A model generated the notes under the pieces. It did not search any database and was not told the DNA's origin. It worked only from the letters and a program-made list of their open reading frames with translations. From an uncultured bacterium (lineage in GTDB: Bacteria; Fidelibacterota; Marinisomatia; Marinisomatales; UBA1611), in contig CBFIBM010000008.1 in NCBI GenBank assembly GCA_965660855.1, positions 17,079 to 81,078 of the forward strand: DNA of 64,000 nt. Reading direction: 5' to 3'. This document shows positions 17,775 to 61,829 of this stretch, piece by piece; the stretch's first letter is position 1; every line of letters starts with the position of its first letter. Both the position numbers and the translations under genes were made by a program.

Positions 17775-17777
17775 GAT

Positions 17778-20349: not shown

Positions 20350-20352
20350 ATG

Positions 20353-21354: not shown

Positions 21355-21359
21355 TTTAT

Positions 21360-22349: not shown

Positions 22350-22385
22350 CTATAAAAATTACTATTTTCTTGAATGACTATTCAA

Positions 22386-23111: not shown

Positions 23112-23112
23112 A

Positions 23113-24729: not shown

Positions 24730-24825
24730 ATTGTAAAATACAGAATACCGGACACATATCAAATTTTATAAAAAATATTTTCAATATTGTTCTAAAAATA
24801 GAGTCTTATTTACACCACCAGATTA

Positions 24826-40539: not shown

Positions 40540-40655
40540 TGAAAGAATCTATTATATACTTTTCTTTATTTTGGGTAATTGGATTTATTTGTTTAGGCAT
40601 TTATCTAAGATTTAAGTTTAAAAATCGATTTGATGAATTAAATGATAAATTATAA
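40539..40655 (+). CDS. 38-aa single-TM small protein
   Basis: MKESIIYFSLFWVIGFICLGIYLRFKFKNRFDELNDKL; TAATG coupling to the upstream gene; overlaps the downstream start at 40642. Confidence 0.6.
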   Translation: MKESIIYFSLFWVIGFICLGIYLRFKFKNRFDELNDKL

Positions 40656-42287: not shown

Positions 42288-43163
42288 TTAAATTGAATCT
42301 AGTAGTCTTTCAATTTCATTCAGAGTTTGAGTATAATATTTATAATCAATTTTATATTTAATTTTATAGCTTTTCTCTTTTTGATTTTTACTTTCCATAT
42401 ACACTGGTGCTCCTACTTCGGTGAGTGCTATATTTTTTATATTGGTTAAAAAGTCTTCATATTCATCTAAACTTTTATTGTACAGCTCAATTTTTTTAAA
42501 AACTTCTTGTAATTCTTTTGAGAAGAAAGAATTTGGTGAGCGAAAAAAAGCTGAGTTAACTACCTTATTAAAATCCTTGAGTTTTATTTCTAACTGAGAT
42601 CTTTTATATCTTATTTTAAAGAGAGTGATTTTATAATCCTTAATTTCATCTGAAATAAAAACTAATTTTTTCTTTTCTTTTTTTAAAACTTTATTAATCC
42701 TAGAAATACTTAAATAAAAAAATTTTTTACTTTTCTCAATTTGTTTACTTTTTATAGCAATTTCATTTCGTAAATCGTTATTTCTTCCATTTTTATTTGA
42801 GTTATTCAAAATTAATTCTGAAGTATTTAACGGAATACTTTTAGTTAAAGTTTCAAATTCAGTTAATATTGTATCTATTTTGTTAATCGATTCTTTATAC
42901 AACTCAAATGACGGAGCTAAACGGTCGTAATTTCTCATATCTGTGTCGATAAAATATTTCAATTGCTTTCTTATCAAATCATCAACAAAAGGATATTCCG
43001 TTTTACGATCTTCTATCCATTTAGAAGTTTCAAATATTTTCACATCCAATGAATGCCTGTCTAAAACCTTCCAAGATTTTATCCTACCTGAACAATCTAT
43101 AAATAAAAAAAGGGTTCCTGTAAGTACAAAAACCCTTAAAAATATGTTTAAATTAGTAATCAA
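42288..43163 (-). CDS. Hypothetical helical lipoprotein
   Basis: Lipobox-like FIDCSG after a hydrophobic leader; Lys/Glu-rich helical body; ATGA overlap with the glutaredoxin gene. Confidence 0.55.
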   Translation of the reverse strand: MITNLNIFLRVFVLTGTLFLFIDCSGRIKSWKVLDRHSLDVKIFETSKWIEDRKTEYPFVDDLIRKQLKYFIDTDMRNYDRLAPSFELYKESINKIDTILTEFETLTKSIPLNTSELILNNSNKNGRNNDLRNEIAIKSKQIEKSKKFFYLSISRINKVLKKEKKKLVFISDEIKDYKITLFKIRYKRSQLEIKLKDFNKVVNSAFFRSPNSFFSKELQEVFKKIELYNKSLDEYEDFLTNIKNIALTEVGAPVYMESKNQKEKSYKIKYKIDYKYYTQTLNEIERLLDSI

Positions 43164-43405
43164 GTTTTTAAAGTGTCCATTTTATTTAATTTTTGTAGGT
43201 CCGTAAATCCTCCAATATTTTCGCCATTTATAACAATTTGAGGAACTGTTCTACCCCCTGTTATTTTATATAAATCTTCTCTCGACATACCTTCTCTTTC
43301 TATATCAATTTCTTCATAGTCAATACCTTTTTCATTTAAAAGTTGTTTTGCATACTTACAAGGGCCACACCATGATGCGGTATAAACTATAACCTTTTTA
43401 TCCAT
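43160..43405 (-). CDS. grxC: Glutaredoxin (Grx3-like)
   Basis: YTASWCGPC, TVPQI, IGGFTD. Confidence 0.88.
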   Translation of the reverse strand: MDKKVIVYTASWCGPCKYAKQLLNEKGIDYEEIDIEREGMSREDLYKITGGRTVPQIVINGENIGGFTDLQKLNKMDTLKT

Positions 43406-46400
43406 TATTTAATTAATAATATTTTTTGAAACTTGGATTTATTTCCATATTTCGCTAAAACAAAATAAGTCCCAGATCCAACTGAATTTCCAAATTTATT
43501 TTTACCATTCCAGGAAAAAGTATAATTCCCAGGAACAAGCGTACCGATTTGGATTACTGAGATTTCTCTTCCAAGGATATCTAATATACTTATTTGACCA
43601 CTTTCCGTTTTAGATATTGATAATTGTAAAGTGGTTGTAGGATTAAAAGGATTTGGGTAGGGAGGTTTTAAATTAAAACCATGAGGTATGAAATCATCAT
43701 CTATTGATAATGGAGCAACATAATTATCGGGTGCTTCTGTAGTAAACCTAATAATTCTCTCATTTTCTAGTATGGCAGCTCCTGGTGCATAGACATTGTT
43801 AAAGACATATTGGAGTCCGTAATTTTTTTCTGGTGCCTCAATTCCTACAGTTGAATAGTTTTTAGTAACATCAACATCCTGTATTTCCAAATATTGGAAA
43901 TCAATAACACCATTTTCACTTTCAGTTGGCATCGAACTTTGATTGTGTAATATTATTTGAAATGTTTCTTCTGTTATTTCATCATATCCATTTAAAGCTC
44001 TTGACCATTCTATAATGAATTGACCATTTTCCTCATCGTACCATGTGTAAACATTAATCCAGATATCGTTTTGACCATCGCCATCAGTATCTAAGGTTTC
44101 TAAATCATCAGAAAAAGGTGCTAGCAAGGCTTTTGGACCCATATACATAGGTATTGACATGTTCCAAAAATAATTGATATCACAGGGTTCAAAAGATGCC
44201 CATCCATTAGAATTAATAGTAATTTGATTATAGTTGACACCATGATATTTAAATGTAAATGGAAGTTCTAAATCAACATGATCATCATCATCTAATTGAT
44301 GGTGAGTACCAAATAATCCTCCATAATTTGGGTCTAATTCAACCCAATTAAAAGTTGGTGTATTAAGATAACCAGTATCGGTATCATCGTATGCCCAGTA
44401 TCCAAAATTATTTGGTGAAACTGGATAGTTGCTAGAGTTAGGAGCTATTTCCAAAGAAATTTCTTGTGAGTAAATATTTATATTATCTTTCAATAACTCT
44501 ACAAAGAGTGTAATCTGACTCCCATAAGATACATCTGATAGTTCTATATTGTAATTTGTTGAATTTATATGTTCTTCAAAAGGTAAAATATCTAATAAAA
44601 AATCAGTTTCATTCATTTCCATATTAACACCATCAGAAACTGGGGTTAGTTTTATGAAAACTGAATCTATTTTTGAATTGGAAAAATTTGAAAGTAAAAT
44701 AGTTGGTGAAAAGATTTCTCCAGGCGAAGGGTTATTTAGAAAATTTAGATTAAAAGCTAATGGGTTAAAATCTATGCATATTTTTGATATGATATTATTT
44801 TCACTATTCTCTATAGCGGCTACTATTGAGTTTCCTAAATCTGGTTTAAAAGCAGTAAATATTAAATTGTTAAAATTGACGGACTCTCCCGGACTCAGTT
44901 GAGGAAAATTTAATATAAGTTCTTGAGGTAAAACGAAATCAGAGAATTTTAAAATCCCTTCAAACGAACCCGTAGTTTCAGTTTGAGAAGTATTTTTAAT
45001 TTCAAAATTTAAATTTACGGGAGAGCCAAAGGATGGCTGTGCTTCATCATCTTCTAAAATAAATGTAAGGTTCGATAATTTTAATCCTTCAGAACTTTCA
45101 ACTTGAAGAGATTTATAACCTTGAATAAACATTTTTTTATTAGCATAGATATCGATAGGACCCGTATTATCAATATTTAGAGTTGAAACAAATTCCCCAT
45201 TAATATCGGATATACCTTTTTTAAGTATTTGGTCATCTTGCATTATACTTATAACAGCATTAGCTATGCGGTTTTGTTGAGAATCTTCAATAATTAACTT
45301 TATGAACCCATCAATATTGGAAAATTCTTGTATGACAATTTCAAATTGGTTTGGGGTATTTAAATAGACTTGCAAAGAAGGATCACCCAAAATATTATAT
45401 ACATGTGAGTAAAATTCTTGCGCTTCACCTGGGCCCGATTGTGCAGGAAATTCTTTTACTAATCCATACTGTCCAGCTTGCATGGCAGGACCCAATTCAA
45501 CAATTCCATGATTTAACATAGCATCATACATATATGCATTAATTATATTATTATATTTAGTACTTGTATGTAAATCAGAAGGTCCAACAAATGCTACTCC
45601 ACCTTTGGGAACTGTAGGAGTTCCTCCGCGAATTATGGCTTCCGCAAGACATGGGTCTACATTATTTGCAAAATCATTTGAATTACAGACATAACTCATA
45701 AACACTGGAGTTAACCATCCATTATTTAAGTCATTTACATCGTCAACATGGAACTCTGGATAATGCCATCCATTTGCATCTCCCCACCCTCGATAATTAA
45801 CTATACCTGCTCCATTGTTGATTAATGGAATAATATAAGAGGCTCCTTGCTGTATTGGTGGATAAAAAACAGTATCAACCTGACTATAACCAAAATCAAT
45901 TAGCTCATCTCTTAGCCAGTAAGATGTCCATTTTGGGGTTACAGGTATAGGGTATGTATTAGAATAATTACCTGCAACAACAATACCCCTACTTAACCAG
46001 TCAGAATTATATTCAAGTGGGTTTCTTGAGTAGTTGATAGTTTTGGACATTATTACAGCGAGATCAGATAATGAATCAATTGATAATCTACCTATAAACA
46101 CATCGGGAATATTATCATCTCCTAAAAGATATGAATATTTTTGATCTGTCACATCATTTTCAGGTCCATAATAAAATGAAGGTAATTCTGAAAATCCGTC
46201 AACATCTCCTATCAATAAAACATATTCTAACATTGGATCATCTATTAGAATTGAATAAATACTTTCCTTGATTCCTTGGGCTGTTTCACCTGCCTCTGAC
46301 AATGACTTGATATATACATCAAATCCTTGAGATTTTTTAAAAGAAACAAAATCATCTAAGTAGTTTATGATTCCGTCTGGAGCAATTATAAGATAACTGC

Positions 46401-46581
46401 CTCTTTCAGAATTAAATTGAGATGGTAATATGTTATAATTCTCTGATACTAAATAGGAAAAGGATAATGGAACTTTTTGACCAATAATTTGGTCCTTACT
46501 TTTTCCTCTAAAAGACATTGTATCTGCCTCAGTAAAATAAACTATAAATATAAGATATATTAATTTTTTAAAATAACGCAT
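43405..46581 (-). CDS. Peptidase C25 (gingipain)-like secreted protein with C-terminal sorting-type domain, atypical active site
   Basis: YLIIAP, KKSQGFDV, YVLLIGD, PDVFIGRL, NYRGWG, SYVCNS, YNILGDP; C-terminal YPNPFNPTT...GSGTYFV. Confidence 0.8.
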   Translation of the reverse strand: MRYFKKLIYLIFIVYFTEADTMSFRGKSKDQIIGQKVPLSFSYLVSENYNILPSQFNSERGSYLIIAPDGIINYLDDFVSFKKSQGFDVYIKSLSEAGETAQGIKESIYSILIDDPMLEYVLLIGDVDGFSELPSFYYGPENDVTDQKYSYLLGDDNIPDVFIGRLSIDSLSDLAVIMSKTINYSRNPLEYNSDWLSRGIVVAGNYSNTYPIPVTPKWTSYWLRDELIDFGYSQVDTVFYPPIQQGASYIIPLINNGAGIVNYRGWGDANGWHYPEFHVDDVNDLNNGWLTPVFMSYVCNSNDFANNVDPCLAEAIIRGGTPTVPKGGVAFVGPSDLHTSTKYNNIINAYMYDAMLNHGIVELGPAMQAGQYGLVKEFPAQSGPGEAQEFYSHVYNILGDPSLQVYLNTPNQFEIVIQEFSNIDGFIKLIIEDSQQNRIANAVISIMQDDQILKKGISDINGEFVSTLNIDNTGPIDIYANKKMFIQGYKSLQVESSEGLKLSNLTFILEDDEAQPSFGSPVNLNFEIKNTSQTETTGSFEGILKFSDFVLPQELILNFPQLSPGESVNFNNLIFTAFKPDLGNSIVAAIENSENNIISKICIDFNPLAFNLNFLNNPSPGEIFSPTILLSNFSNSKIDSVFIKLTPVSDGVNMEMNETDFLLDILPFEEHINSTNYNIELSDVSYGSQITLFVELLKDNINIYSQEISLEIAPNSSNYPVSPNNFGYWAYDDTDTGYLNTPTFNWVELDPNYGGLFGTHHQLDDDDHVDLELPFTFKYHGVNYNQITINSNGWASFEPCDINYFWNMSIPMYMGPKALLAPFSDDLETLDTDGDGQNDIWINVYTWYDEENGQFIIEWSRALNGYDEITEETFQIILHNQSSMPTESENGVIDFQYLEIQDVDVTKNYSTVGIEAPEKNYGLQYVFNNVYAPGAAILENERIIRFTTEAPDNYVAPLSIDDDFIPHGFNLKPPYPNPFNPTTTLQLSISKTESGQISILDILGREISVIQIGTLVPGNYTFSWNGKNKFGNSVGSGTYFVLAKYGNKSKFQKILLIK

Positions 46582-48872
46582 TTTTTTATTGCCCGTTTAT
46601 TATTTGATTCAATTTGAATAAAATACATTCCTGAGCCGTATTTTGTTTCATTAATGTTTTTAAAATCAAAAACAAAGTTTTTGCTTCCAGGGATCATATT
46701 CAATTTTTTTGAAAATATTTCTTGACCTAAAATATTAAATATTTTTAACTGTTTTACTCCACTGTAGTACTGGTTAAAAGAAATTTGAAATCGACCATTT
46801 GATGGATTAGGACTTATATTACTAATTTTCAAGGGTATTGAAGGGATTGTATTAGTTGAACTATTAGATAGGCTTAAATAGTTATCTTGAACTGAAAATA
46901 ATTTTATTCCAGCTATATCCCAACCTTCATAATTCACACTATTATCTAATAAAAATTTTAATCTGATTTTGACTTGGCTAAAAGTAGAATCATTAATTAT
47001 TGTAAAATAATTATTCACAAAAGTATTATTTGTTGATCCAGATATTTTTTTGTCATATAAAATATTATTATAATTATCAATTATCTGAATATTGATAAAA
47101 TCATGATCCCACTCAGTTTCATACCTATGGTTTAATTGTAAAAGAATCCTATTTTTATTTTCAACATTGATAAAATTTGTTTCTATAATTTGAGAGGAAG
47201 TTAAAGAATCAATATTTGCATAATGCTGATTAAGTTGAGAACTTAAAATGCCATTATTGAACACCCAGAATCCTTGCATCGTTTCCCAAACCCATGGATT
47301 ATCTGAAATCATATTTTCAGATTCTAATATTGGGATATCAATTGACATATTTTGATCAAGGACAATTCTTTTTTCCCAAGGAACTAAATTACTTGCCTCA
47401 TTCATAGGAATCACAATCTGATATTCATCACTATGCAACTCAAAATAATTCTGACTGGTTGTCAGAAGTTCAATAGATATTTCATCAAATTCAGATTTAA
47501 GATGTGCTGTGATAGAAGGAACATCAAAAGCATTATTTAAAATATTTATTTCAAGATTAAACTTTTGAGACGGATCAATAAAAATATCATTATTTGTAAT
47601 ACCACTATTATTTGCTACGGATATAACCTGTTTATCATTATAACCTTTAGCTTTAACTAAAATCGTATAAGTTCCTACATCTAATATTCTTCTATATCTT
47701 CCAAATTCATTTGTTTTTCTTGGGGATAATACTGACCCAGTGTGCTCCAGAATTTCGACAACTGCTCCTTCAATAGGTTGATTTGTTTCACTATCATAAA
47801 TAATTCCAGTAATTTGAGAGGCATCTGCATAATATCCTATAGTTCTATCCATTAAATATATCATAGCAGGTTTTGTTCGCTCTATGGTATTTTCAATTAA
47901 AATACTGTCTGGTTGTAAATTTGCAGTTCCACACTCAACTAAGTACTGAAATGATCCAGTAGCTTTGTAAAACCAATCATGTATTTTACCATTTCGAGAC
48001 CCACTAAAAACCGATAAATAGGTACTAGTTCCATCTTCAGTCGGAATAAGACCAGAGAAATGATCTGATATTTTTTTCATAATATTGAGGTCAGGTGATT
48101 CCTTTACTTCTTCCCACTTCCATGAGGTAAATACTTTCTCTGATAAATTTCCAGATCTAGAACTATGCCACACAATTGAAAATACAAAATCATTTTCAAG
48201 TGCCAAATTTCTCAAGGCTATGGATTCAGATTCTGAAAAAGGTTCTTCTCCTTTGTAGTAATCATAATGGGAACCATAATCAGAATTATCAGGTTCAAGA
48301 AATGTATCTCCAAATGCCCAGTTAAATCCAAAATTTCTATTTAAATCAACTCCATCTACATCATTCCCAATGGATGGATCAAAATCAAAAATACTATTAG
48401 GATATGGACCATTAGGAGAGAAATCTCTTTTATTTTTTCTATAACTAAGATCATGACCATCATGGACTACATTTAATCCTTCTGGGTTTAAGGTTGGAAT
48501 TATCCATATATCTAAATACTCTTTTAAAATATTCATGTGCGTGTTAATGCTGGGGTCTGGAAATAACAAATCATTGATAAGATCAAGTACAATTTCAACA
48601 CCAAGTATTTCTTCAGCATGGACTTGACCTACAAATAATACCCTTGGCTCGTCTTCTTTAATGGATGCATTATCAGAAATTTTAATAGCTATTATTGGAA
48701 TATTCTCTTGAGAGGAATATCCTATTGTATCTATCATTAACCATTCATTTAGTTCTTCGATATTATTCAGAGAATCTAAATATGAATAAATTTCTTGTGT
48801 AGAATGGTATCTACTATCGATTTGTTGGGCAGAAATATAAGATAATAATAATGTAAATAATATTTTATTCAT
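46560..48872 (-). CDS. M14 zinc carboxypeptidase with CP-regulatory-like domain and C-terminal sorting-type domain
   Basis: QVHAEE (HxxE), NPEG, RKN, GVDLNRNF, VWHS, LVECG; GIIYDSETNQPIEGA; SPNPSNG...GMYFI. Confidence 0.88.
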   Translation of the reverse strand: MNKILFTLLLSYISAQQIDSRYHSTQEIYSYLDSLNNIEELNEWLMIDTIGYSSQENIPIIAIKISDNASIKEDEPRVLFVGQVHAEEILGVEIVLDLINDLLFPDPSINTHMNILKEYLDIWIIPTLNPEGLNVVHDGHDLSYRKNKRDFSPNGPYPNSIFDFDPSIGNDVDGVDLNRNFGFNWAFGDTFLEPDNSDYGSHYDYYKGEEPFSESESIALRNLALENDFVFSIVWHSSRSGNLSEKVFTSWKWEEVKESPDLNIMKKISDHFSGLIPTEDGTSTYLSVFSGSRNGKIHDWFYKATGSFQYLVECGTANLQPDSILIENTIERTKPAMIYLMDRTIGYYADASQITGIIYDSETNQPIEGAVVEILEHTGSVLSPRKTNEFGRYRRILDVGTYTILVKAKGYNDKQVISVANNSGITNNDIFIDPSQKFNLEINILNNAFDVPSITAHLKSEFDEISIELLTTSQNYFELHSDEYQIVIPMNEASNLVPWEKRIVLDQNMSIDIPILESENMISDNPWVWETMQGFWVFNNGILSSQLNQHYANIDSLTSSQIIETNFINVENKNRILLQLNHRYETEWDHDFINIQIIDNYNNILYDKKISGSTNNTFVNNYFTIINDSTFSQVKIRLKFLLDNSVNYEGWDIAGIKLFSVQDNYLSLSNSSTNTIPSIPLKISNISPNPSNGRFQISFNQYYSGVKQLKIFNILGQEIFSKKLNMIPGSKNFVFDFKNINETKYGSGMYFIQIESNNKRAIKKCVILKN

Positions 48873-48875
48873 GTT

Positions 48876-51800
48876 TTACTTTAAATATGTTATTTTACCT
48901 CTGTATATATTTGATTTTGATTTAAATACATAAAAATATAATCCACTTGATACGGTCGTTCCATTTATCATTTTTCCATCCCAAGAAATTCGGTGGTGAC
49001 CCTCTGTATTCGGTAAAATAAGTTTGCTAGTAATAATTTTACCATTTAAGTCATAAATAGTAAAATCTAATGGTTCTTCACTCGGGACAAAATAATCAAA
49101 TGATATTAAACCATTAAATGGATTGGGATATGCACTATTAAGTGAAAATTTGCGGGGAATTTCACAGTCGATACAAGGTTCCTTGACTGTTAAATATTCT
49201 GACTTTGTGATTATTCGCCCATAATAGTTTGCCAAATCTTCTTTACCAGAGCTTCTATAATCTACCCAATCAAGGAGATATTCAGAGTTCTGGTAATTTG
49301 TTATATTTACATTTTGCTGCTTATGGTATGCTATACAAACTGGAGTACCATTAACTTCAGTTGTCATACCATTTCCCAGAATAAATCCGCTTCCATATAA
49401 ATCTACACCATTGATTAGCAATGGATCATCATTGTAATATCCTCTTCCATCTTCCCAAACGATAAAAAATTCGTCATCCATAAGATGCTTAACCAGTGGA
49501 TTAAATTGATCAGTCGTATCATTAGAAAATTGTATCTCATTGCCACTAATCAAACCATTTTGAAGATTCAAAACATTTGCAAAGATTTCAAAATCTGAAC
49601 CATTTCTGTAATCCTCCCATATTATTAATGAGTGGGTCTTACTTTCATTAATATCAAAAGATATATTTCCTTGATCGTTATCAGCATCTGATATTACTAT
49701 TCCACTAGCTGAAAATTGCAAATTACCATTCCAATCTATAACCTGAGCATATATATCTGAAAAGTTTCCATCTTGGTTCCAAATCGCCAACATTCCTACT
49801 TCTTCATCAATAACTTTTACCTGTAAGTTTCTTGAGTCATACTGAGAAATACTTAGTTGATTTCCATTTGGATTCCAACCTATTTCAACATTACCATCTG
49901 AATCAATTTTTGTAAATTTTAAACTTGCTGCTGGCCAAGCATCCTCTAACCAAAATATTATAAATTTATTATCTCCAGTAGGAATTATTTCAACGATATA
50001 ATCATCTCCATTTGAATCAACTAATTCTATACCTTGATCAACCAAAGCAATTGAACCATCAGAATTTAATCTTTGGTAATAAATATTATAGTTAAACCCT
50101 CTACTCTCAGACCAGAAACATCCAATACCATCACCGATTTCTTGTAATTTAACACTTCTCATATCAAATACAGCTGAAAGAGCAACTCCAGAGGAATCCC
50201 ATAAGTTATTTAAATTATCATCAACCTTATTTATTCTTAGAAATTTTGGTGATGACGCCCCATCGAAAGTCGCAGTGTAAAAATTATTGTTAGATTCAAT
50301 ATAAAATGGGGTTGAAAAATCTGTTTCAGATGATGAGTTATCACCATAAGTTAATTGCTTACCATTTAACGTATCTACCTCTGAATTAAGAATTCTAGTA
50401 CTAAATATCTTTTTAGATGCCCTGTTATCCTCCCATACTAAATATACATCATTATCTGCGATTTTAAAGGTTTTGGTATAATTTATATCGCCATCTAAAC
50501 CTTTCATTACCTCTAAACCATTATTTTGCCACTCAGGTTGATAATCTGTATTTATTTTTTGTACTTTTAAATCTATACTTCCATTACCTTGATCTCCGTA
50601 AATGATAAATAATCCACTGGAATTGTTACCCATAATAGCAGGTGAATATTGATACCCTAATTCTTGATTAATCGAAATAGGTTCATTATGTATTGCAGTT
50701 CCATCAGATGTGATATTTTGATACATAATATCGATTTCAGGAAATGATCCTCTCTCCCATACTACATTTACCCCACCATTATCATCTGGTGCAAACCTCG
50801 CACTAAAATCAGGTAGATTTGAAGGATCAACCCTTACACCATCATTCCATTCTGTATCACCATCTATATTTACTTTTTGAAAATATTGATCACCATCAAT
50901 TGGGTCATCTCTAAGATCTTTCCAATTAACGAAAATCTCTCCAAGAGTGCTTCTTTTGACCCTTGGTGCTGTTTGAATAGATTCACTTGAAGAAATCTCT
51001 TTTGCTGTTTCAAATAAAACCCCATCAGAGTTTATAAATTGATATAAAACCTTAGAATCTTCATCACCAACCTTCCAACATAAAAAGGAAGTGTCATTAT
51101 TTACAAATGTTGCTCGAGGTTTTAACTCTTGTTCTTCAGTACCAGCAATTTGAAAACCATTTTCTTCAAATTGCATAACCATATCGATACCGAATCTTTG
51201 TCCATAAATATTTGCATTAGCACCTTCTCTAAAATCAGTCCATGCAATAAATGCTTCATTATTCCCAGCATATTCAATAGTTTTAGAATTTTGACTTCCT
51301 CCTTGAACTACTATTGGATAACCAGTGCCTGGGGCTCCTATGGTATAATCTGAAGAAACATGAGTTCCATAAATATCATCATCTATACCACTTCTTTTAT
51401 CCTGCCATGTAACAAAAACACCACCTAAACTATCCGTACACATATTTATAGTAATTTGTTTTCCTGGAACATCAGCTAGGGCAACACCGTTAGGATCCAT
51501 TAAGATTACTCCTTCGGAACTAATATGCTGAATAAAAATATCACCTTGAGCATCAAAGCGGTAATCAACCCATGCAATAAATGCACCTCCTGATCCGTCA
51601 GTAATCGAAACTGGATCTTCTTGTCTTCCAGGAAGATTTGTAATGGTAGCACCATTATCACCCCATAATAATTCACCATTTTGATTAATTTTATGTGCAA
51701 AAATGTTCCTCATTCCAAATCTGGTATCAGACCATACGAAAATTGATTCGCCTTCATTACCTGAAGCTAGGGTTCTATACCATTCAATGTGGACACCTTG

Positions 51801-51884
51801 TCTTATTGGTGCGCCATCACCACTATCAAAATTTATTGACATCAAAATCGATGAGAATAAAATTATTATTGATATATATTTCAT
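48876..51884 (-). CDS. Large secreted repeat protein (probable beta-propellers) with C-terminal sorting-type domain
   Basis: About 15 repeats of G-x-F-I-x-W-x-D-x-R...(D/N)I(Y/F)xQ; C-terminal AYPNPFN...WDG...SSGLYFY. Confidence 0.7.
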   Translation of the reverse strand: MKYISIIILFSSILMSINFDSGDGAPIRQGVHIEWYRTLASGNEGESIFVWSDTRFGMRNIFAHKINQNGELLWGDNGATITNLPGRQEDPVSITDGSGGAFIAWVDYRFDAQGDIFIQHISSEGVILMDPNGVALADVPGKQITINMCTDSLGGVFVTWQDKRSGIDDDIYGTHVSSDYTIGAPGTGYPIVVQGGSQNSKTIEYAGNNEAFIAWTDFREGANANIYGQRFGIDMVMQFEENGFQIAGTEEQELKPRATFVNNDTSFLCWKVGDEDSKVLYQFINSDGVLFETAKEISSSESIQTAPRVKRSTLGEIFVNWKDLRDDPIDGDQYFQKVNIDGDTEWNDGVRVDPSNLPDFSARFAPDDNGGVNVVWERGSFPEIDIMYQNITSDGTAIHNEPISINQELGYQYSPAIMGNNSSGLFIIYGDQGNGSIDLKVQKINTDYQPEWQNNGLEVMKGLDGDINYTKTFKIADNDVYLVWEDNRASKKIFSTRILNSEVDTLNGKQLTYGDNSSSETDFSTPFYIESNNNFYTATFDGASSPKFLRINKVDDNLNNLWDSSGVALSAVFDMRSVKLQEIGDGIGCFWSESRGFNYNIYYQRLNSDGSIALVDQGIELVDSNGDDYIVEIIPTGDNKFIIFWLEDAWPAASLKFTKIDSDGNVEIGWNPNGNQLSISQYDSRNLQVKVIDEEVGMLAIWNQDGNFSDIYAQVIDWNGNLQFSASGIVISDADNDQGNISFDINESKTHSLIIWEDYRNGSDFEIFANVLNLQNGLISGNEIQFSNDTTDQFNPLVKHLMDDEFFIVWEDGRGYYNDDPLLINGVDLYGSGFILGNGMTTEVNGTPVCIAYHKQQNVNITNYQNSEYLLDWVDYRSSGKEDLANYYGRIITKSEYLTVKEPCIDCEIPRKFSLNSAYPNPFNGLISFDYFVPSEEPLDFTIYDLNGKIITSKLILPNTEGHHRISWDGKMINGTTVSSGLYFYVFKSKSNIYRGKITYLK

Positions 51885-51905
51885 TAAAATTCCTTTTAAA
51901 ATAGT

Positions 51906-52940
51906 TTATAAATTTAATTTTAAAATCTTGATACCTTCTCTTGTACAAGTAAGAAGCTGTTGATTCCAAAACTTAGTCTTGTATGTATAACCCACAGAAA
52001 AAATACCTTTTTCAATTGGATTTGTTGGATCAGTTATATCATAAATAGCAGTCCCTCTAGAGCCAATAGACAATACTGCTATGTTATCTTTTATCGAAAT
52101 ATGATTTACAGTTAAATCCTCTGCAAATCTATAACCCATTTCACCAGTTGGAAAATTAGGGTAAGGGATGTATACTGCTCCTGCATTATCACATGCCACA
52201 AATACACCTTCTCCTGAGATTGCAGTGGAAAGTGCATTCCCTTGAGTGTTTACCCTTCCTATGAAATTTATTTCAGAGCCTAGGGAATCTATTGAAAAAA
52301 GCTCAACACCCATTTGATCAACAGCCATGGTGATTTTAGAAAATCCATCAGAATCAATGCCCATAGATTTACCTGGGGTGTATATTTCTGATCCATCAAT
52401 AGGTGTCCATTCTATAAATTCTATACCAAATAAATTAGTTGTATCTAAACTATACTTACCCCATTTGAGACCATCATCATTATCCGCTGTATACATTATG
52501 AATTCATCAAGTTTATTTGAGAAAACCACGTAATCTTTTGTTCGAGCGCTCATAATAGTATTTCTGTATCTAAGACTGTCTGCTTCATCTAGATTGTATA
52601 TCATTACATCTTTATTTGATTCAGAAACAAAAACTAGGTTGTTTTTTGAATTATGTTCAATCAGTGAAATATCTTCAAATTCTAAAAAAGCGCCTCCTTC
52701 ATAATAACCATAAAAACTTTTTATTAAAGCCTTTGAAGTAAGATTCCATATTTGAACACCTGACTGACCTGCTGCAACAAAAGCAGTATCATTTTTTATT
52801 GAGACATCTCTAGCAAACCCATTTGTCTCTAAAGTTGATATTATATCATAAGACCATAAATCTTCATCATTTGGTTCCATACAGCCTGAAAACATCAAAA
52901 TTAAAATTATAATATATATTTTATCTTTAATAATTGTCAT
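51906..52940 (-). CDS. LVIVD-repeat-like beta-propeller lipoprotein
   Basis: Lipobox FSGC; GFARDVSIKNDTAFVAAGQSGVQIWNL; AIYDITDPTNP. Confidence 0.65.
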   Translation of the reverse strand: MTIIKDKIYIIILILMFSGCMEPNDEDLWSYDIISTLETNGFARDVSIKNDTAFVAAGQSGVQIWNLTSKALIKSFYGYYEGGAFLEFEDISLIEHNSKNNLVFVSESNKDVMIYNLDEADSLRYRNTIMSARTKDYVVFSNKLDEFIMYTADNDDGLKWGKYSLDTTNLFGIEFIEWTPIDGSEIYTPGKSMGIDSDGFSKITMAVDQMGVELFSIDSLGSEINFIGRVNTQGNALSTAISGEGVFVACDNAGAVYIPYPNFPTGEMGYRFAEDLTVNHISIKDNIAVLSIGSRGTAIYDITDPTNPIEKGIFSVGYTYKTKFWNQQLLTCTREGIKILKLNL

Positions 52941-53952
52941 AATCTATTTTCCATTCAATAGTAATCCAAGTTTGAATTTGGTTAAAGCTCTTTAAATCAG
53001 AAACCCACTTGTATGAGGAAAATGTATCTCTTTTCCTATATCTAAATTTAAAATTTAATTTTAATCCATCTGAGATGTATTTTTTTATCCATAAATCATA
53101 TTTATAGTCTCTATGACTTCTTCCAGAATGTAGAGGATCGTTAAAATCTTCTGCATCATATAGTCGATTTTCATTTCTATATGAGAAACCAAACTCATCA
53201 ATAGTATTAATTTTCTTTTTTATTATCAGAGGTAAATACATTTCAGTAGACTTGTAGGATCTATCAAAGCTACTTGGTTTCAACGGAAATTCTCCTGAAG
53301 TACTTTTTGCATTACCATATTCATACTGTATTCCAAAAATCCCAATATTTTTTAACTTATAGTTATGTTTTGCTCTTATAAAAATAATATCCAAGTCAAA
53401 TTCTGTAAATGGTTTATCATAATATCTTTGTATATAACCTAATGTCAAAATAGACCAAGAATTTTTATAATACCTTTGAGAAATAGAAATATTCTGATTC
53501 CTATCATTGAAAAAACACGGACTATACAAATCATTACTAACATCTCGATTAATATAGTGTCTTAAATAAAAGCTATTTAAATGTCTTATTTGATATTTTA
53601 TATTTTTATATCCACCCCACTTATATATGAGGTCACCTCCACTACTCCAATATTTTTTTTCTTTATTATTTCGGTAATCTGAAAAAGTAAAATTTCCTCT
53701 TAAAATAACTTCATTCTTTTTAACTTTGTACAACGACTTTTGACCTTTTAATCCATATTTAAAAACATAGCTATCAAAAGTAGTTGTTCCTCCTAAGATC
53801 TCTGGGCTAAGAACGGCATCAGAGAAGTCTCGATCAGAAAATCTCATGACATTATTATCATAACCAGATGTAAAACTCAATGTATACTCAAAAGGAGTTG
53901 AACCAAAAACTGTGGATAGTATGAGTAATTTTAAAAAAAATTTATTCATCAA
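52927..53952 (-). CDS. Probable outer-membrane beta-barrel protein
   Basis: Signal peptide; GYDNNV N-terminal strand motif; aromatic-rich alternating strands; terminal strand WITIEWKI. Confidence 0.55.
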   Translation of the reverse strand: MMNKFFLKLLILSTVFGSTPFEYTLSFTSGYDNNVMRFSDRDFSDAVLSPEILGGTTTFDSYVFKYGLKGQKSLYKVKKNEVILRGNFTFSDYRNNKEKKYWSSGGDLIYKWGGYKNIKYQIRHLNSFYLRHYINRDVSNDLYSPCFFNDRNQNISISQRYYKNSWSILTLGYIQRYYDKPFTEFDLDIIFIRAKHNYKLKNIGIFGIQYEYGNAKSTSGEFPLKPSSFDRSYKSTEMYLPLIIKKKINTIDEFGFSYRNENRLYDAEDFNDPLHSGRSHRDYKYDLWIKKYISDGLKLNFKFRYRKRDTFSSYKWVSDLKSFNQIQTWITIEWKIDYDNY

Positions 53953-54827
53953 TATAAAATAAAACGAGTAAGCACAGTTTTTCCCTTATCTAGAACTTCA
54001 ACAAAGTAAGAATGTTTGCCTTTTGGAACTTTAATTTCACAAGATCTCCATTTTCCAGGTACTATATCATCTTTACCTATAATTTTAGATGCAGAAGATC
54101 TTTCGGTATTAAAGTAATATGTTCCAATAACTTTACTACCTTCTTTTACCCTGATTCTAAATGATTCTTGTTGTCCCATTGATTCAGTAAATTCCAGACG
54201 ATTCATTATTTTAAGAATATTTTCCCCATTTGTTTGAATTTTTAGAGGTAGAGTCGGTGAACACTCAAAGTATTCTATTATTTTATTTCCACTAACTAAT
54301 GAAACTGAATTTTTATGTATTGAAGGAGTAATGATTTTCTTCTTCTTTCCAGGATTTTCAAATTCTTTTGACAATACTCTAACTAATGTGGGTAGTTTTT
54401 GATCTGAGTTCTCCAAAATTTCAATTTTATTTTGACCTTTATCTAAATTAATAAAATAATTTCCAGAAAAGGTATAATTATGCTTAGGGTGCTGCACAGA
54501 TCGTACTGCTCTTTGAATTTTATATTTGTGTTTAACAGTTATTGTGTCTTTTTCATTTAATACAATCTGGTACGAATATGGATAGCTTTTCTTTTTTTTT
54601 CTAAGAACAGGAAATCTTGAGATAAATTCTAATCTTTTAGGTCCACTTATAGAAAACACAAGACCTTCTGGTTTAACAGGATAATAAAGCCTTCGTTTTG
54701 AATTAATGATTAAAATCTCTTTTTCTTCACCATTTTCAGTTGGCTTAATAAGTTTACCACTTAAAGGAGTTACCAATAAAAATAGTAAGATTGGTATAAT
54801 TATTTTATAATAAACTATCTGGTTCAT
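53949..54827 (-). CDS. Exported basic protein with two tandem beta-rich domains
   Basis: Signal peptide; halves share a Y...(S/N)G...L....R...(Y/F).I pattern; Lys/Arg-rich. Confidence 0.55.
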   Translation of the reverse strand: MNQIVYYKIIIPILLFLLVTPLSGKLIKPTENGEEKEILIINSKRRLYYPVKPEGLVFSISGPKRLEFISRFPVLRKKKKSYPYSYQIVLNEKDTITVKHKYKIQRAVRSVQHPKHNYTFSGNYFINLDKGQNKIEILENSDQKLPTLVRVLSKEFENPGKKKKIITPSIHKNSVSLVSGNKIIEYFECSPTLPLKIQTNGENILKIMNRLEFTESMGQQESFRIRVKEGSKVIGTYYFNTERSSASKIIGKDDIVPGKWRSCEIKVPKGKHSYFVEVLDKGKTVLTRFILY

Positions 54828-55956
54828 GTTGAGTTAAATGCTCTTTTATTTTTTGTTTACTTTGGAAACCGATCAATAAAACGTATCCTACTATTAATAA
54901 TAAACAGAAGGTAACTACTATTAAATTATATCTTTCAACAGCGTATAGGCTTCCAATTCCAATTTCAGGAACCGGAATTGGTGCAAATTGCATATTATAC
55001 TGTTCAATTAGAGGCTTTATATTAAGTATATGTAATCCTAAAACATTTGATTTAATGAACCGAGAAAAAACGCCTTCGATACCTCCGGATCTTTCAATCT
55101 TGTTAATGTCAGAACGATTAACAACTCCCGGTGATAATAATTTCAAATTAAATGATGTACCCAAGCTAGCTACACCACCGCCAATATTTATTATAGCTTT
55201 ATATGAATCTATGGAAGCATACTTTTTATATTGCTCCATTCTATATAAAATATTATCATTCAATCTATTCTTTTTTATCAATGGAATATTATATTTTGAA
55301 ATATTTTCAATTATCAAATCTCTTCCAGCTGGAGATAAAAGCCTGCCCATATCATTTCTACCTCCTATTGAAGCTGCAATACTTACCGATGGAATTAATT
55401 CTTTTTCAAAAAGAATTCTTTCCATATCAAGCCATGTAAAATCAATTTGATTTGCGCCCCATTGTGATGCACCAACACTGGATATAGTTATAGGTATTAA
55501 TCCAAGTGATTTGCAAGCAGTCAGTACAGCAATATTTGCACCAGGCATTGATCCAGTCATAAGAATTGCTACAGTATCATTCTTCTTTAAACTTAATTGA
55601 GACATGAGGTCAACAATGATTGCAGAAAAATTAGGATCTAAAGTTGTCAATTTTGCATCGAGATCACCTTCATCTGTTGTAATCAAACTAAATGGCCCAC
55701 CAACCAAACCTGTTTCATTTGGATCATTTTCACTATCGATAAAAATACTCTGCTCCATTCTATGGTTTTTTAATTCATTCATTGCAGTTTTCATTAATTT
55801 TGCTGCTTTAATTTTAGAGGTATATGAGGGCGATACTTCTATCGTTTTCATATTTATACTAATGATAAAACAAATAAGACTTAATATTGAAAGCAATACA
55901 AGAGTTGATGTTTTTTGTATAGCAGGAATAAAAGGAGTATTTTTATAGTTGTTCAA
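54805..55956 (-). CDS. pgsW: Poly-gamma-glutamate system protein PgsW
   Basis: DPNETGLVG, ITTDEGDLDAK.TT.DPNF, TGSMPGANIA, SVGASQWGAN, TWLDME, INIGGG; follows pgsC; likely TTG start at 55956 after GGGGGAG. Confidence 0.85.
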   Translation of the reverse strand: MNNYKNTPFIPAIQKTSTLVLLSILSLICFIISINMKTIEVSPSYTSKIKAAKLMKTAMNELKNHRMEQSIFIDSENDPNETGLVGGPFSLITTDEGDLDAKLTTLDPNFSAIIVDLMSQLSLKKNDTVAILMTGSMPGANIAVLTACKSLGLIPITISSVGASQWGANQIDFTWLDMERILFEKELIPSVSIAASIGGRNDMGRLLSPAGRDLIIENISKYNIPLIKKNRLNDNILYRMEQYKKYASIDSYKAIINIGGGVASLGTSFNLKLLSPGVVNRSDINKIERSGGIEGVFSRFIKSNVLGLHILNIKPLIEQYNMQFAPIPVPEIGIGSLYAVERYNLIVVTFCLLLIVGYVLLIGFQSKQKIKEHLTQHEPDSLL

Positions 55957-56392
55957 AAAGAACTCCCCCAAAAATTAACATTACAGAAAGTTTTACTATT
56001 ACTGCCGTAAGTAGAACCACAGAGAGTGTTCGCATTACCCCTTGTCTGTCCATCCAGTTTGCAATTAGACCTGGAATAATATTTCCAATTACTGCTACAG
56101 ATCCGAGGTCAGATTGTATAAAAATTAAATTTCTTGAGATATAACCAAAGAAAAAGCCTAGAATTAAAGCTAGTACGATTCTCCTTTTACCATAAAGAAA
56201 GATATATTTCCCAAGTATTTGAATAATCCCCCAAACTATTAATGCTACCAAAAAAGTAGATAACACTTGGTACGGCTGGTGTAAATAAAGAGAGACATAA
56301 CCGGGTACTATGATACCTCCAGCAGTGACACCTAAAGTCTCAGATAGGACAAGACTAAGGACAATACCTAAACCAATACTTACTTCAATCAT
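55943..56392 (-). CDS. pgsC: Poly-gamma-glutamate biosynthesis protein PgsC/CapC
   Basis: GIVLSLVLSETLGVTAGGIIVPGY, LYGKRR, IGNIIPGLIANWMDRQG. Confidence 0.93.
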   Translation of the reverse strand: MIEVSIGLGIVLSLVLSETLGVTAGGIIVPGYVSLYLHQPYQVLSTFLVALIVWGIIQILGKYIFLYGKRRIVLALILGFFFGYISRNLIFIQSDLGSVAVIGNIIPGLIANWMDRQGVMRTLSVVLLTAVIVKLSVMLIFGGVLFEQL

Positions 56393-57560: not shown

Positions 57561-57591
57561 TGTAATATTTTTGTATGGCTAATTTTTTGAA

Positions 57592-60500
57592 TTAACCTTC
57601 ATATCTCATAATAGTCCTAATCAATGAAATTAAATCCATGACATTCACCATATTATCACCATTTATATCTGCAAAGAATGCATTTATCTCGCCCTCATAT
57701 CCTAGGTTGTAATCCACTAACAACATTAAATCATTGACATCAACAATACCATCATAGTTTAAATCACCTTCAAGCCTAACATCGCTTCCTCTAGTTGTAA
57801 TTAAAATAGATGTTTCATCTGATAAACTACCGGCAGAGGTATGATAGGTATTATTGAATGTATATTGTAGACCATCTGTCATTGTATGGTCTTCTATTCC
57901 AACAGTGCAGTAATCTCCATGAATCTGATCCCATCCATATGATCCATATGAAGTATTATTAAATTCTTTGTACTGAATTAGAATGTCACCATCACCCGTA
58001 GGAGTTGGATAATAGCTGGGATCAAAGAGTACAACCTGGAATGATTCTCTTGAATTATTTTGATAAGTACGAAGTTCAGACCATTCTACGTAAAACTTTT
58101 TACCTATTTCGTCAAACCATGTATACACCCTTCCACCATTTGTTGTTTTTAAATCGTCCCAAAAAACTGCTACCATAGCCCTAGGTCCACCAGTTCCTGG
58201 CATAGTATAGTTTCGAAAAGATTCCATAGGTGTAGATCCCATTGATATCCAACCATTTGAACAGACACTAATTTGATCATAGTCTTGACCATAAAAACTA
58301 AAGGTAAATGGTAAATCAACAAGGATAACATCGTCTCCATTATTTCCAGCATCTGATAATCCACCTAAATGAGTACCTGGACCACCTTCCCTATCATCAA
58401 TTTCAACCCAGTTGTAAACCGGTGCTAACGTATAGTCAATATCTTCATTACCATATATGTAATATCCATGTGAATCAGGTCCTACCGGATCCGTTACAGT
58501 TGCTGCACCAATCTGGAGAGATACCATAGAATTAGATGTATATCCATCTTCTGTTTCAATATTTACTACCAAATGTGCGATTGTTCCAGGAATTGTCCCT
58601 TCTAGCGCTTTTATCTCAAAATTATTTTCATCATTATACTCAGAACTTCCTGAAGAAATGGATGACCAGGTTCCAGAATTGTCCAATATTTCAATGAATG
58701 GAGAAGAGGATGTAATGGTTCCAGATATAGACTCCGATCCGATACTTCCTTCATTTTTCAAACCTATATCAACCTGAGATGTCGAACCTGGATTAAGTAT
58801 ATCTGAGGCTGAACCAACTATTTCTAAGTTACTAGCACTTATCTTATTTCCAGAAACGAATACATTTAATATTCCTGTAAAATCATTACCACTATCATCA
58901 ACCAAATCAACTATAATTTCTAAATTATTACCATCTTCAATACCATCTCCAAGAATTAATAAAAATGGATCGGTATTGGTAACACTTTCATTTGGCAATA
59001 AATCACCATAAGTAATTGTGTTTAAAGGAATATTAACACTACTATTTTGAGTTGATAATGTTGCAGTTATACCTGATGCATTTTCAGATCCATAATTTGT
59101 AATTGTTAAGTAACTTTCTAAAGTTTCTCCACTATTTGCTATTGAATTTGAATTTCCAATTGAGCCACCTGTGTTATCATCGATTATTAAAAGAGGATTT
59201 TCAGAAACATTTAACGATACCCCCGGATCATAAATTTGGAAAGAGTTTTGATATGGATAGTGATTTTTCTTGGTTACTGTTACTAAAACTTCCCCTGTCT
59301 GATTTGTAGTAATTGGCAGACGAACAAAACCTTGATCATTTGTATACCCTGACTCCACCATTACACCGTCCATCAATATTGTCACCCACGCATCTTCTAC
59401 ATGTCCCAATTCTTTTGAAACATTAATATCTATGAAATTTGTTCCTTTAGTAACAGCATAAGAATGATTAACTGTTGTTAATTCTGGAAATGAACTCCAC
59501 ATTTGTAGAGATGATTCTCCCATTAGACTATTCCAATGAACAAAAATATCAGAAAAATTATTAGGGTTATCTGGATATATTTCATACAGAAGCATTTTAC
59601 CATACATCAATGCACCACCAGCAGAATTAATATCTTTTATTAAACTCCCATAATAAAATCCCATATCAACAATATTATTGAACATTGTATGTGTACCTGT
59701 GGTCGCTGTGCCAACGCAAACAACTGAACCCTTAGGATTTGATGAGGTTCCAGCTCTAATAAAAGCTTCAGACATTGCTTCCTCTTGACCAAAGGAACCT
59801 GTTCCACAAGTAATAACGGTAGCTACAGGTAACATAAAACCATTTGATGTACCATTTATGTCATTATTACTAAAACCACTCACTCCATAAAAACCTCTAT
59901 AATTGAAAAAAGAAACACCGTCAGTAATACCTGATTGCATTTGGCTTGGAAAAGAACCACCATAAATAGTATTGACTTCTTCAAACCCTACCATGTCAAG
60001 GATTTCATGAATAGCTTCATTTGTTATAACACATGATATACCTGATGTGCTTTGATCACCTACTAAGCACGCACGCTCAAACCAGTTTTCGTTCATGTAT
60101 GGATTAGATTCATAATTAATGGTTTTACTTACAATTGTATTTAAATGTGAACTGGTTTCGAAAGATAAACGACCAATAAAAACCTCAGGAAAATTATCAT
60201 TCCCTTCAAGTGTAGTATAAGGATGATCCCCATCTCCATTATACCCACTTTGTGATTCATTCCAAGTTGGAATATCATAAGAACCTGTGACATCACCAAC
60301 TATATTGACATGCACCGGAGGATTATCCCATGATTCATATGCATCTTCGATATAATTTTTTAAGTTGTTTCTATTATTCACAACATTAGAGCTTGAAACA
60401 AAATTAACTTCATAACCTACTCGCTCTTTCCATTTCATAAGTTGCTCAATCGTGCCAAAGAGATTTCCAATATTATTTGGCAAGACATAAAGTATCGATG

Positions 60501-61176
60501 GTCTTTGATATTCTACCTCATCCCTATTCAAGGTATTATAATTCACTACGGTAGCTTCATACAACTTTTCAAATTCTCTAGATATTTTTCTTGGTACAAA
60601 TGGAATGTTTTCAGACTCTATTTCTATTAGAGAAATTTCAGCATCTTTAATAATGGTAAGTTCTCTAGTTGAAGGATTATATTGAAATGGCGTCATAGCT
60701 ATTTGAACCATTACAAGATCTCTCATTACAATTGGTTCTGAAGCATTAATAATTTCTTGTGGAAAAATATTATTTTGAGAATAGACCACGCCTTTAACAG
60801 GATTACCTGTCAAATTACGACCCCACCCTTCGAGTGGCAAAATATCAATATTTTGTACAACTTCTTGTTCATGAATTACTAACTCAACATTCAATTTTTT
60901 CCCAGGATCAACTGCGTACATAGTAGTAACAGTTGGTAAAAATGGTTCTCCAGGCAATGCTACTGAACCTGCATTTTCAATTGTAGGTTTGATGAAATTT
61001 TCACCATTCACATCCATATGTTTTAATTCATAATTAATATTTTTGAATCTCAATTTCTGTTCATTAAGAACACTCGTAAATTCAAATCCATTATGGATTT
61101 TATCAGTAATTCTTTCAGCATAAGCACATACAGTTACTAAAAGTAAAAATCTAAAAATTTGGTAAAGTCTATTCAT
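57592..61176 (-). CDS. Peptidase C25-like secreted protein with propeptide-like N-terminus and C-terminal dockerin-like repeat, atypical active site
   Basis: GEPFLP...TPFQYNP propeptide-like region; WKERVGY, IVGD, PEVFIGRL, NYRGFYG, VITCGTG; C-terminal GDLNYDGIVDVNDL...ADINGDNMVNVMDL. Confidence 0.8.
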   Translation of the reverse strand: MNRLYQIFRFLLLVTVCAYAERITDKIHNGFEFTSVLNEQKLRFKNINYELKHMDVNGENFIKPTIENAGSVALPGEPFLPTVTTMYAVDPGKKLNVELVIHEQEVVQNIDILPLEGWGRNLTGNPVKGVVYSQNNIFPQEIINASEPIVMRDLVMVQIAMTPFQYNPSTRELTIIKDAEISLIEIESENIPFVPRKISREFEKLYEATVVNYNTLNRDEVEYQRPSILYVLPNNIGNLFGTIEQLMKWKERVGYEVNFVSSSNVVNNRNNLKNYIEDAYESWDNPPVHVNIVGDVTGSYDIPTWNESQSGYNGDGDHPYTTLEGNDNFPEVFIGRLSFETSSHLNTIVSKTINYESNPYMNENWFERACLVGDQSTSGISCVITNEAIHEILDMVGFEEVNTIYGGSFPSQMQSGITDGVSFFNYRGFYGVSGFSNNDINGTSNGFMLPVATVITCGTGSFGQEEAMSEAFIRAGTSSNPKGSVVCVGTATTGTHTMFNNIVDMGFYYGSLIKDINSAGGALMYGKMLLYEIYPDNPNNFSDIFVHWNSLMGESSLQMWSSFPELTTVNHSYAVTKGTNFIDINVSKELGHVEDAWVTILMDGVMVESGYTNDQGFVRLPITTNQTGEVLVTVTKKNHYPYQNSFQIYDPGVSLNVSENPLLIIDDNTGGSIGNSNSIANSGETLESYLTITNYGSENASGITATLSTQNSSVNIPLNTITYGDLLPNESVTNTDPFLLILGDGIEDGNNLEIIVDLVDDSGNDFTGILNVFVSGNKISASNLEIVGSASDILNPGSTSQVDIGLKNEGSIGSESISGTITSSSPFIEILDNSGTWSSISSGSSEYNDENNFEIKALEGTIPGTIAHLVVNIETEDGYTSNSMVSLQIGAATVTDPVGPDSHGYYIYGNEDIDYTLAPVYNWVEIDDREGGPGTHLGGLSDAGNNGDDVILVDLPFTFSFYGQDYDQISVCSNGWISMGSTPMESFRNYTMPGTGGPRAMVAVFWDDLKTTNGGRVYTWFDEIGKKFYVEWSELRTYQNNSRESFQVVLFDPSYYPTPTGDGDILIQYKEFNNTSYGSYGWDQIHGDYCTVGIEDHTMTDGLQYTFNNTYHTSAGSLSDETSILITTRGSDVRLEGDLNYDGIVDVNDLMLLVDYNLGYEGEINAFFADINGDNMVNVMDLISLIRTIMRYEG

Positions 61177-61184
61177 TTCTTCCT

Positions 61185-61826: not shown

Positions 61827-61829
61827 TTT

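Follow-up and report, generated by a model that had tools for sequence, protein, structure and literature searches.

A twelve-gene run around the poly-gamma-glutamate synthase genes

We analysed a window of 64,000 nucleotides (the whole stretch of DNA under study) from an uncultured bacterium of the phylum Fidelibacterota, order Marinisomatales, which carries a gene set for poly-gamma-glutamate (PGA) centred on the synthase genes pgsB, pgsC and pgsW. Twelve minus-strand open reading frames (ORFs) lie in one run at positions 42288-61176 (Table 1), and their junctions range from a 29-nt overlap to a 31-nt gap. The initial annotation had read this run as a PGA capsule or surface system for a two-membrane cell, and the gene order and the spacing that it gave (overlaps or gaps of at most 31 nt) were borne out. 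All three pgs assignments stood above the curated cut-offs of TIGR04012, TIGR04011 and TIGR04332. Pfam confirmed a PF01364 domain in both C25-like proteins, the M14 domain and the glutaredoxin, and a 14-strand structure model agreed with the claimed outer-membrane barrel. The label LVIVD for the propeller lipoprotein held in part: such repeats were found in 23 of 50 homologues, and none was seen in the copy of the window. CapA and CapD had been said to be lacking in the window, and indeed no PGA_cap or gamma-glutamyltranspeptidase (GGT) match was found there.

The tight run continues upstream into genes for an A24 peptidase, pilC and pilB (gaps of 8, 3 and -1 nt), and unrelated genes are packed likewise at 15009-24762 (rimO, ftsY, pgsA, kdtA-like, tatC and others). 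Tight junctions alone are therefore uninformative on shared function, and comparative data are informative instead. Scanning 44100-64000 for promoters and terminators gave counts at the level of shuffled sequence (107 vs 114; 6 vs 8).

Table 1. Genes of the run at 42288-61176 (T9SS, type IX secretion system; pI, isoelectric point)
Feature	Position	Strand	Basis
C25a, secreted gingipain-fold protein with propeptide, C25 domain and C-terminal dockerin	57592..61176	-	Pfam, RgpB alignment, motif counts, co-occurrence
pgsB/capB, poly-gamma-glutamate synthase, Mur-ligase fold, GTRGKS P-loop	56385..57560	-	TIGR04012
pgsC/capC membrane subunit	55943..56392	-	TIGR04011 and PF14102 above cut-off
pgsW, "poly-gamma-glutamate system protein", hydrophobic segments at N- and C-terminus	54805..55971	-	TIGR04332, alignment
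Basic exported protein, pI 9.9, two jelly-roll beta-sandwiches	53949..54827	-	structure model, co-occurrence
14-stranded outer-membrane beta-barrel, conserved Arg/Lys residues	52927..53952	-	structure model, fold search, co-occurrence
Beta-propeller (LVIVD-type) lipoprotein, invariant Cys20	51906..52940	-	homologue alignment, co-occurrence
Acidic repeat protein, W-x-D-x-R repeats, probably beta-propellers, T9SS-type tail; lineage-restricted	48876..51884	-	Pfam scan, co-occurrence
M14 zinc carboxypeptidase, T9SS-type tail; lineage-restricted	46560..48872	-	Pfam, alignment, linkage
C25b, second Arg-type C25 (Arg264, Trp266, Cys299), T9SS-type tail; lineage-restricted	43405..46581	-	Pfam, RgpB alignment
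Glutaredoxin, non-member	43160..43405	-	Pfam
Lipoprotein, 291 aa, non-member	42288..43163	-	ORF

The synthase core

PgsB scored 408 bits (cut-off 223), PgsC 114 bits (cut-off 96) and PgsW 288 bits (cut-off 100), and the pgsB and pgsC ORFs overlap by 8 nt. An Atlas search with PgsW returned PGA-system clusters only. A depolymerase, PgsS, is forbidden in the capsule model of CapsuleFinder. The CapsuleFinder model for PGA makes CapB and CapC mandatory and CapA and CapE accessory, and allows CapD elsewhere (PMC5542703); in the window CapB and CapC are encoded together, as this model requires. CapB and CapC orthologues also lie side by side in the CapBCADE/PgsBCAE systems of Bacillus. In contrast to CapBCADE, where CapA and CapD belong to the operon, the block described here has neither of them: pgsW follows pgsC, a barrel, a periplasmic protein, a lipoprotein and a C25 protein are added, and the CapA domain occurs in an unlinked multidomain protein.

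The same three-gene core has been described as a CapB-CapC-PgsF operon in Cloacimonadota and other Gram-negative carriers (bioRxiv 10.1101/2025.11.11.687785), and we infer that PgsF is the TIGR04332 protein. The barrel, the periplasmic protein and the linked C25 are not named in the part of that account available to us, whose Fig. S12 may show flanking genes. CapBC together with unnamed transport proteins was also reported in Cloacimonadota (PMC8542988).

Accessory genes are co-inherited with pgsBCW

Genomes, contigs and loci are given by our G, C and L numbers, the host being G000. When 61 related genomes were scored for pgsB against its curated cut-off, 47 exceeded it, and 40 of the positive loci were retrieved. 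The order C25a-pgsB-pgsC-pgsW-basic protein-barrel-propeller-repeat protein was kept up to the contig ends in 39 of these 40 loci, with small insertions in some; the remaining locus, L062, is of another type, described below.

Profiles for PgsW, the basic protein, the barrel, the propeller, the repeat protein and C25 were counted in 201 genomes sampled evenly from the host phylum, while M14 and C25b were tallied in fetched loci only. PgsW was present in 82 genomes, the barrel in 79 and the basic protein in 78, every one of the last being barrel-positive. A pgsW match was found in 78 of the 79 barrel genomes, and in the remaining one (G101) a fragment of the gene lies where a contig ends. The propeller accompanied the barrel in all 79, and was also found in G122 and as three weak partial matches. 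Strong matches of the repeat protein (E<=1e-100; 15 weaker ones set aside) occurred in 78 of the 79 and in G082 and G122. The C25 of the Arg type, which has an Arg near its active site and lacks the canonical His, was found at E<=1e-60 in 79/79 barrel genomes and in 3 of the 122 others (12 matches at 1e-47 or weaker set aside). In these three (G026, G082 and G122) contig ends cut through the block. Presence was patchy inside families (10 of 26 genomes in f9), and this mixed presence points to several joint losses of the block, among kin that are not independent.

The cross-phylum set, mostly Bacteroidota, was made up of the 80 best pgsW matches out of at least 588 from named genomes, and neighbours were counted over the loci with room for them. 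The basic protein and the barrel followed pgsW in 67/69 loci, the propeller was present in 50/64, and C25 in 50/60, two of them of the His type, which retains that residue. Carriers beyond the host phylum belong to Bacteroidota, Ignavibacteria, KSB1 and Cloacimonadota. The linkage survived rearrangement: in another class the order is pgsB-pgsC-pgsW-basic protein-barrel-propeller-C25-repeat protein-M14, in G037 M14-C25b lies divergently upstream, and in the Cloacimonadota locus L182 repeat protein-M14-C25 precedes pgsB.

A further sample was an order centred on the Bacteroidales record G231 (the Bacteroidales-centred order), of which 241 genomes were covered. Here the Arg-type C25 was found in 10 of the 16 genomes with pgsW and in 0 of the 225 without it, at most 11 candidates having been scored per genome, a limitation that tells against our reading. 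Among the six pgsW genomes lacking it, one contig starts in a T9SS-type tail upstream of pgsB, three loci are of the second type, and two hold only pgsB/C, pgsW and the basic protein.

These results indicate that the basic protein, the barrel, the propeller, C25 and the repeat protein belong with pgsBCW, since they are co-inherited and stay linked through rearrangements; for the first four, the linkage extends across phyla. Occurrence of these five accessory genes independently of pgsBCW was looked for across the genomes, and the proposal was not refuted by it. Ten of the twelve genes of the run form the co-inherited system. The glutaredoxin and the 291-aa lipoprotein, which the initial annotation had counted as parts, had to be dropped: they follow the block in the host's own order only, were found in none of the 80 cross-phylum loci, and the glutaredoxin followed C25b in 0/10 loci with room in other orders of the same class. 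The pilus genes were likewise rejected, the A24 gene adjoining the block in 29 of the 80 loci L031-L110, in three families only. The glutaredoxin, the lipoprotein and the pilus genes are hitch-hikers.

A second locus type, and CapA, GGT and racemase elsewhere

Eight pgsBCW loci (L062, L089, L094, L105, L107, L232, L234 and L237) are of a second type and contain no barrel, basic protein or Arg-type C25. They have a divergent pgsB, GGTs, AstE-like or other peptidases, a DUF6305 protein and T9SS-tail hydrolases, and L094 encodes a racemase-like exported protein. Both locus types occur together in G228 and G132. Among the 160 loci L031-L190, five were found to have GGT homologues, as was L237, and all six lack the barrel and an Arg-type C25. 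In Bacillus, transpeptidation by CapD anchors the capsule (PMC8062742). As GGT was confined to second-type loci, the idea that C25 fills the place of GGT fits, though it is unproven.

The claim that CapA, CapD and glutamate racemase are missing and replaced was too strong, because the host genome encodes all three classes on other contigs. GGT and PGA_cap matches were confined to contig C7, outside the window, and the glutamate racemase likewise lies on a contig other than that of the window. The CapA-domain protein (G000:C7:59847-64598, L191) is secreted, has 1583 aa and combines PGA_cap with a dockerin tail. This long form with a split match was present in 43 genomes among the matches listed, all of them block carriers (42 barrel-positive genomes and G122). 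In Ignavibacteria (L156 and four more) a shorter CapA-domain homologue is encoded between C25 and pgsB, and one was also found in L176. CapA is optional and unlinked here, not replaced. Generic PGA_cap was rejected as a marker of the block, as it was present in 85/201 genomes, for example in 14/20 of a pgsW-free family. By eye, the N-terminal domain of the 1583-aa protein resembles that of an ORF in the second-type locus L105.

The basic protein and the barrel as a candidate export pair

The barrel was modelled as a closed antiparallel barrel of 14 strands after a signal peptide (pLDDT 94.6, pTM 0.89). Its closest folds were CymA (Z 24.1, root-mean-square deviation 3.5 over 285) and OmpG (Z 21.3), and PgaA, BcsC and PelB ranked below them at Z ~14. 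The Pfam scan gave no match for the window protein and OMP_b-brl in 6 of 94 homologues. By a crude guess from residue alternation, the 103 lumen positions include 21 Lys/Arg versus 13 Asp/Glu.

The basic protein was modelled as two beta-sandwiches (pLDDT 87). Matches to folds like carbohydrate-binding modules were middling and near background (Z ~9; BcsB Z 8.4), and TM-scores from Foldseek were <=0.34 among the matches listed, so no such module family was assigned. The median pI of 69 sequences was 9.7, and only 2.8% of the long open frames of this genome exceed 9.8. The two proteins are fused in L184. An exit route is the simplest reading of two basic proteins, one periplasmic and one a barrel, that are encoded immediately behind a synthase whose product is a polyanion. 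From these models, the basic protein is a candidate periplasmic carrier for the polyanion, and the barrel a candidate exit channel, presumably working outwards.

The arrangement resembles the BcsB/BcsC, PgaA, PelB and AlgE export systems, in which an inner-membrane synthase, a periplasmic jelly-roll protein and an outer-membrane barrel are likewise encoded in one operon. It differs from them in that the product would be a polyamide, the 14-stranded barrel is nearer to CymA and OmpG, and no tetratricopeptide-repeat scaffold was seen in the block.

Another explanation is that PGA is released as an unanchored slime and recycled, with the C25 proteins, M14 and the repeat protein as a depolymerase set and the barrel re-importing oligomers or docking these enzymes. 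CymA and OmpG, the best folds of the barrel, are uptake porins, which also counts against our reading; M14 is an exopeptidase, Arg-type C25s have multiplied into paralogues, as is common in families of degradative enzymes, and the second locus type carries mainly hydrolase-like genes. However, the barrel and the basic protein stand directly after the synthase in nearly all cross-phylum loci with room, and in the 201 genomes neither was found without the synthase, whereas one would expect to see an uptake system in non-producers as well. We consider recycling unlikely.

A single-domain basic protein (149 aa) was seen in G065 and G204, and reduced forms lie at L071:8143-8592, L082:1451-1900 and L084:6989-8359 (G065, G204, G220); G220 has a 456-aa PgsW without the basic protein. 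Complex prediction for the barrel with the propeller lipoprotein scored 0.00 in two runs, with the controls not folded, so the result counts neither way.

The C25 proteins have an apparently remodelled active site

In alignments to the gingipain RgpB, Cys457 of C25a and Cys299 of C25b correspond to the nucleophile Cys244. At the catalytic His211 C25a has Phe429 and C25b Trp266, and at Thr209 they have Arg427 and Arg264, respectively. Asp163 is not kept, the residue aligned with it in a gapped segment being Cys in C25a and Pro in C25b. We counted these motifs over 117 loci, in the 155 domains that have a residue in each of the three columns (six gapped rows excluded). Arg without His was found in 153 of the 155 domains at pgs loci and His in two, and the nucleophile Cys in all 155. 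The substitutes for His211 are F, Y, W, E, L, I or Q. The motif NYRGEG was read in 26/26 loci returned from the Bacteroidales-centred order, and the three unlinked C25s of the host genome retain Gly-His-Gly. Of 116 type-a domains, 111 retain a His (His496) close to the Trp284 segment.

Compared with RgpB, Kgp and PorU, these proteins share the C25 domain, the propeptide and the nucleophile Cys, and differ by the replaced His211, the change of Thr209 to Arg, the loss of Asp163, the new conserved His near Trp284 (type a) and the tie to pgsBCW. Thr209, Trp284 and Asp163 form the base, the lid and the charge anchor of the S1 pocket of RgpB (PMC9559808). Given these roles, we infer that the pocket would prefer an acidic residue at P1 and that the catalytic machinery would be altered. 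C25a is thereby a candidate glutamate-directed transpeptidase or hydrolase. Judged from its residues and its linkage, the Arg-type C25 probably acts on PGA, with transfer and hydrolysis about equally plausible. A transpeptidase of family C25 has been proposed before in PG0026/PorU (PMC4560394).

The loss of the canonical His could also mean that the Arg-type C25 is a non-catalytic scaffold or pseudo-peptidase, or that C25, the repeat protein and M14 are a separate secreted-protein block long linked to pgsBCW. The wide range of residues at the His position agrees with this, C25b has no candidate column for a substitute His, and the C25 block lies apart from pgsBCW in G062, L076 and L083. On the other hand, an invariant Cys in all domains, a propeptide kept in C25a and the retention of His496 tell against this, and in two phyla the Arg type is confined to genomes with pgsW. 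This explanation seems very unlikely to us.

The tails of C25a orthologues alternate between dockerin and T9SS types across lineages, and dockerin C25s were read as parts of cellulosome-like complexes (PMC8542988). The Arg-type C25 might be a second sortase-like enzyme that couples cargo with T9SS or dockerin tails to polyglutamate, as PorU does with anionic lipopolysaccharide, PGA then being the anchor. The shared peptidase family with PorU speaks for this (PMC4560394). The host genome encodes SprA and 81 ORFs with T9SS-type tails and 16 with dockerin-like tails, and an enzyme that has the Cys but not the canonical His could be biased towards transfer rather than hydrolysis. However, the host has His-type C25s with T9SS-type tails of its own, possibly PorU. 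T9SS is widespread in Bacteroidales, whereas the Arg-type C25 occurs in only 10 of the 241 genomes of the Bacteroidales-centred order. Protein anchoring of this kind is improbable in our view.

The His-type genes of the host, on G000:C29 and G000:C2, are two near-identical C25 genes (SYIGHG) with T9SS-type tails, either a recent duplicate or assembly redundancy. A single origin of the Arg type was not adopted, as a tree of 24 chosen C25 domains was unsettled, with two long branches and the His-type rows on one side in 16% of bootstraps.

The propeller lipoprotein, the repeat protein and M14

An Atlas search with the repeat protein named no family (best score 0.89, a lead only). In M14 the residues H85, E88, H236, N178-R179 and E313 are intact in 38/38 sequences. 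Alignment to carboxypeptidase T placed His298 at the position of residue 255 of carboxypeptidase A in 38/38, with Arg293 nearby in 35/38. Specificity for acidic residues goes with a basic side chain at position 255 (PMC9925722). Characterised acidic carboxypeptidases have Arg or Lys there; with His298, the M14 may or may not share their preference. The propeller lipoprotein is often followed in Bacteroidota loci (e.g. L113:14103-16461) by a DUF3859-like protein and an acyltransferase of the HGSNAT type (~370 aa), possibly for modification of the polymer or its acceptor.

A tiered model for polyglutamate in a two-membrane envelope

We favour the reading that the block is a PGA system for a two-membrane envelope, built in tiers, and consider it probable as a whole. 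First, PgsB-PgsC-PgsW, assigned by family, would make PGA at the inner membrane. Second, the basic double beta-sandwich would hold the polyanion in the periplasm and hand it on to the basic 14-stranded barrel as its way out of the cell. Synthesis followed by exit through these two proteins is the part in which we have good confidence. Third, the exported Arg-type C25 may act on the glutamyl bonds of the polymer at the surface. Its Cys would be the nucleophile, in an S1 pocket with a new Arg but without the Asp of gingipains, and it would transfer the chain to a surface amine, as CapD does, or cut it; the propeller lipoprotein is its likely partner at the outer membrane. Fourth, in the host phylum and at one Cloacimonadota locus, the repeat protein, M14 and C25b may trim or recycle the polymer. 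The long CapA-domain protein would be an optional member acting from another locus.

Several observations weigh against this tiered system. L151, L235 and L236 have the basic protein but no barrel, L130 holds C25-pgsB-pgsC-pgsW without basic protein and barrel, and G220 lacks the basic protein. In the cross-phylum set, Cloacimonadota have C25 in only 2/6 loci with room and the propeller in 0/4, and a genome search found no Arg-type C25 match in an Auribacterota genome. Genes in one block are lost together whatever their function, and related genomes are not independent samples. In the fold search, CymA and OmpG are followed by FadL-type chains of BAM complexes. In the profile alignments His496 lies near, not exactly on, Trp284, and the type-b residue in its column is Ser or Asp in 37/37. 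The His at position 255 of M14 departs from the Arg or Lys expected for acidic specificity, and the GGT of the host could itself act on PGA. The Arg-type C25 is also expanded, with 10 strong matches in G238 and tandem arrays at G304:C1:34857-57105 and G349:C45:19425-40292; with more than one per locus, a single anchoring role does not account for the expansion. Five loci without C25 have strong C25 matches elsewhere in the genome (motif there not read), again at odds with a single anchoring role.

A bolder form of the tiered model is a covalent polyglutamate coat in the FCB group, made by a route unrelated to CapD: a dedicated 14-stranded barrel would be combined with a C25 subfamily that transfers the polymer to a surface acceptor and has an Arg-lined glutamate pocket, with the conserved Cys and a relocated His replacing the usual dyad of clan CD. 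The second-type loci of the same phyla, with GGT-family and other peptidases, would be another, independent processing solution on one synthase. We regard this form as rather unlikely.

What is new here is the remodelled C25, its confinement in two phyla to genomes with pgs genes, and the alternative locus of the GGT type. In the papers found, the passage of PGA across the outer membrane of two-membrane bacteria and its retention there are not described, and the block names candidate parts for both. Our literature search, which did not extend to subscription papers or the preprint supplement, turned up no publication that deals with the barrel, with the basic protein or with a pgs-tied His-less C25. 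If the model is true, a C25 with Cys, no canonical His and an Arg in S1 would represent a catalytic arrangement new to clan CD and might be of use as a tool for glutamyl transfer. Melioribacter roseus is a cultured species, and a metagenome-assembled genome assigned to it carries the block (L179); this carrier would make the question directly testable.

Neighbouring genes

Upstream of the run (61185-63928), the pilB-like ORF has only 283 aa near the contig end, starting from position 109 of the T2SSE profile, and is followed by pilC and the A24 peptidase; the same orientation of these genes and the block was seen in three families only. On the other side, 40642-42285 encodes an HExxH metalloprotease of the MXAN_6640 family with a T9SS tail, which in many relatives faces the end of the run in convergent orientation; MXAN-like proteins were also seen near the pgs loci L156 and L176. 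Farther on, upstream of alaS, 38237-39823 encodes an exported protein of 528 aa without Pfam match, which has Asp-rich DxDxDG repeats and a probable barrel-like C-terminus.

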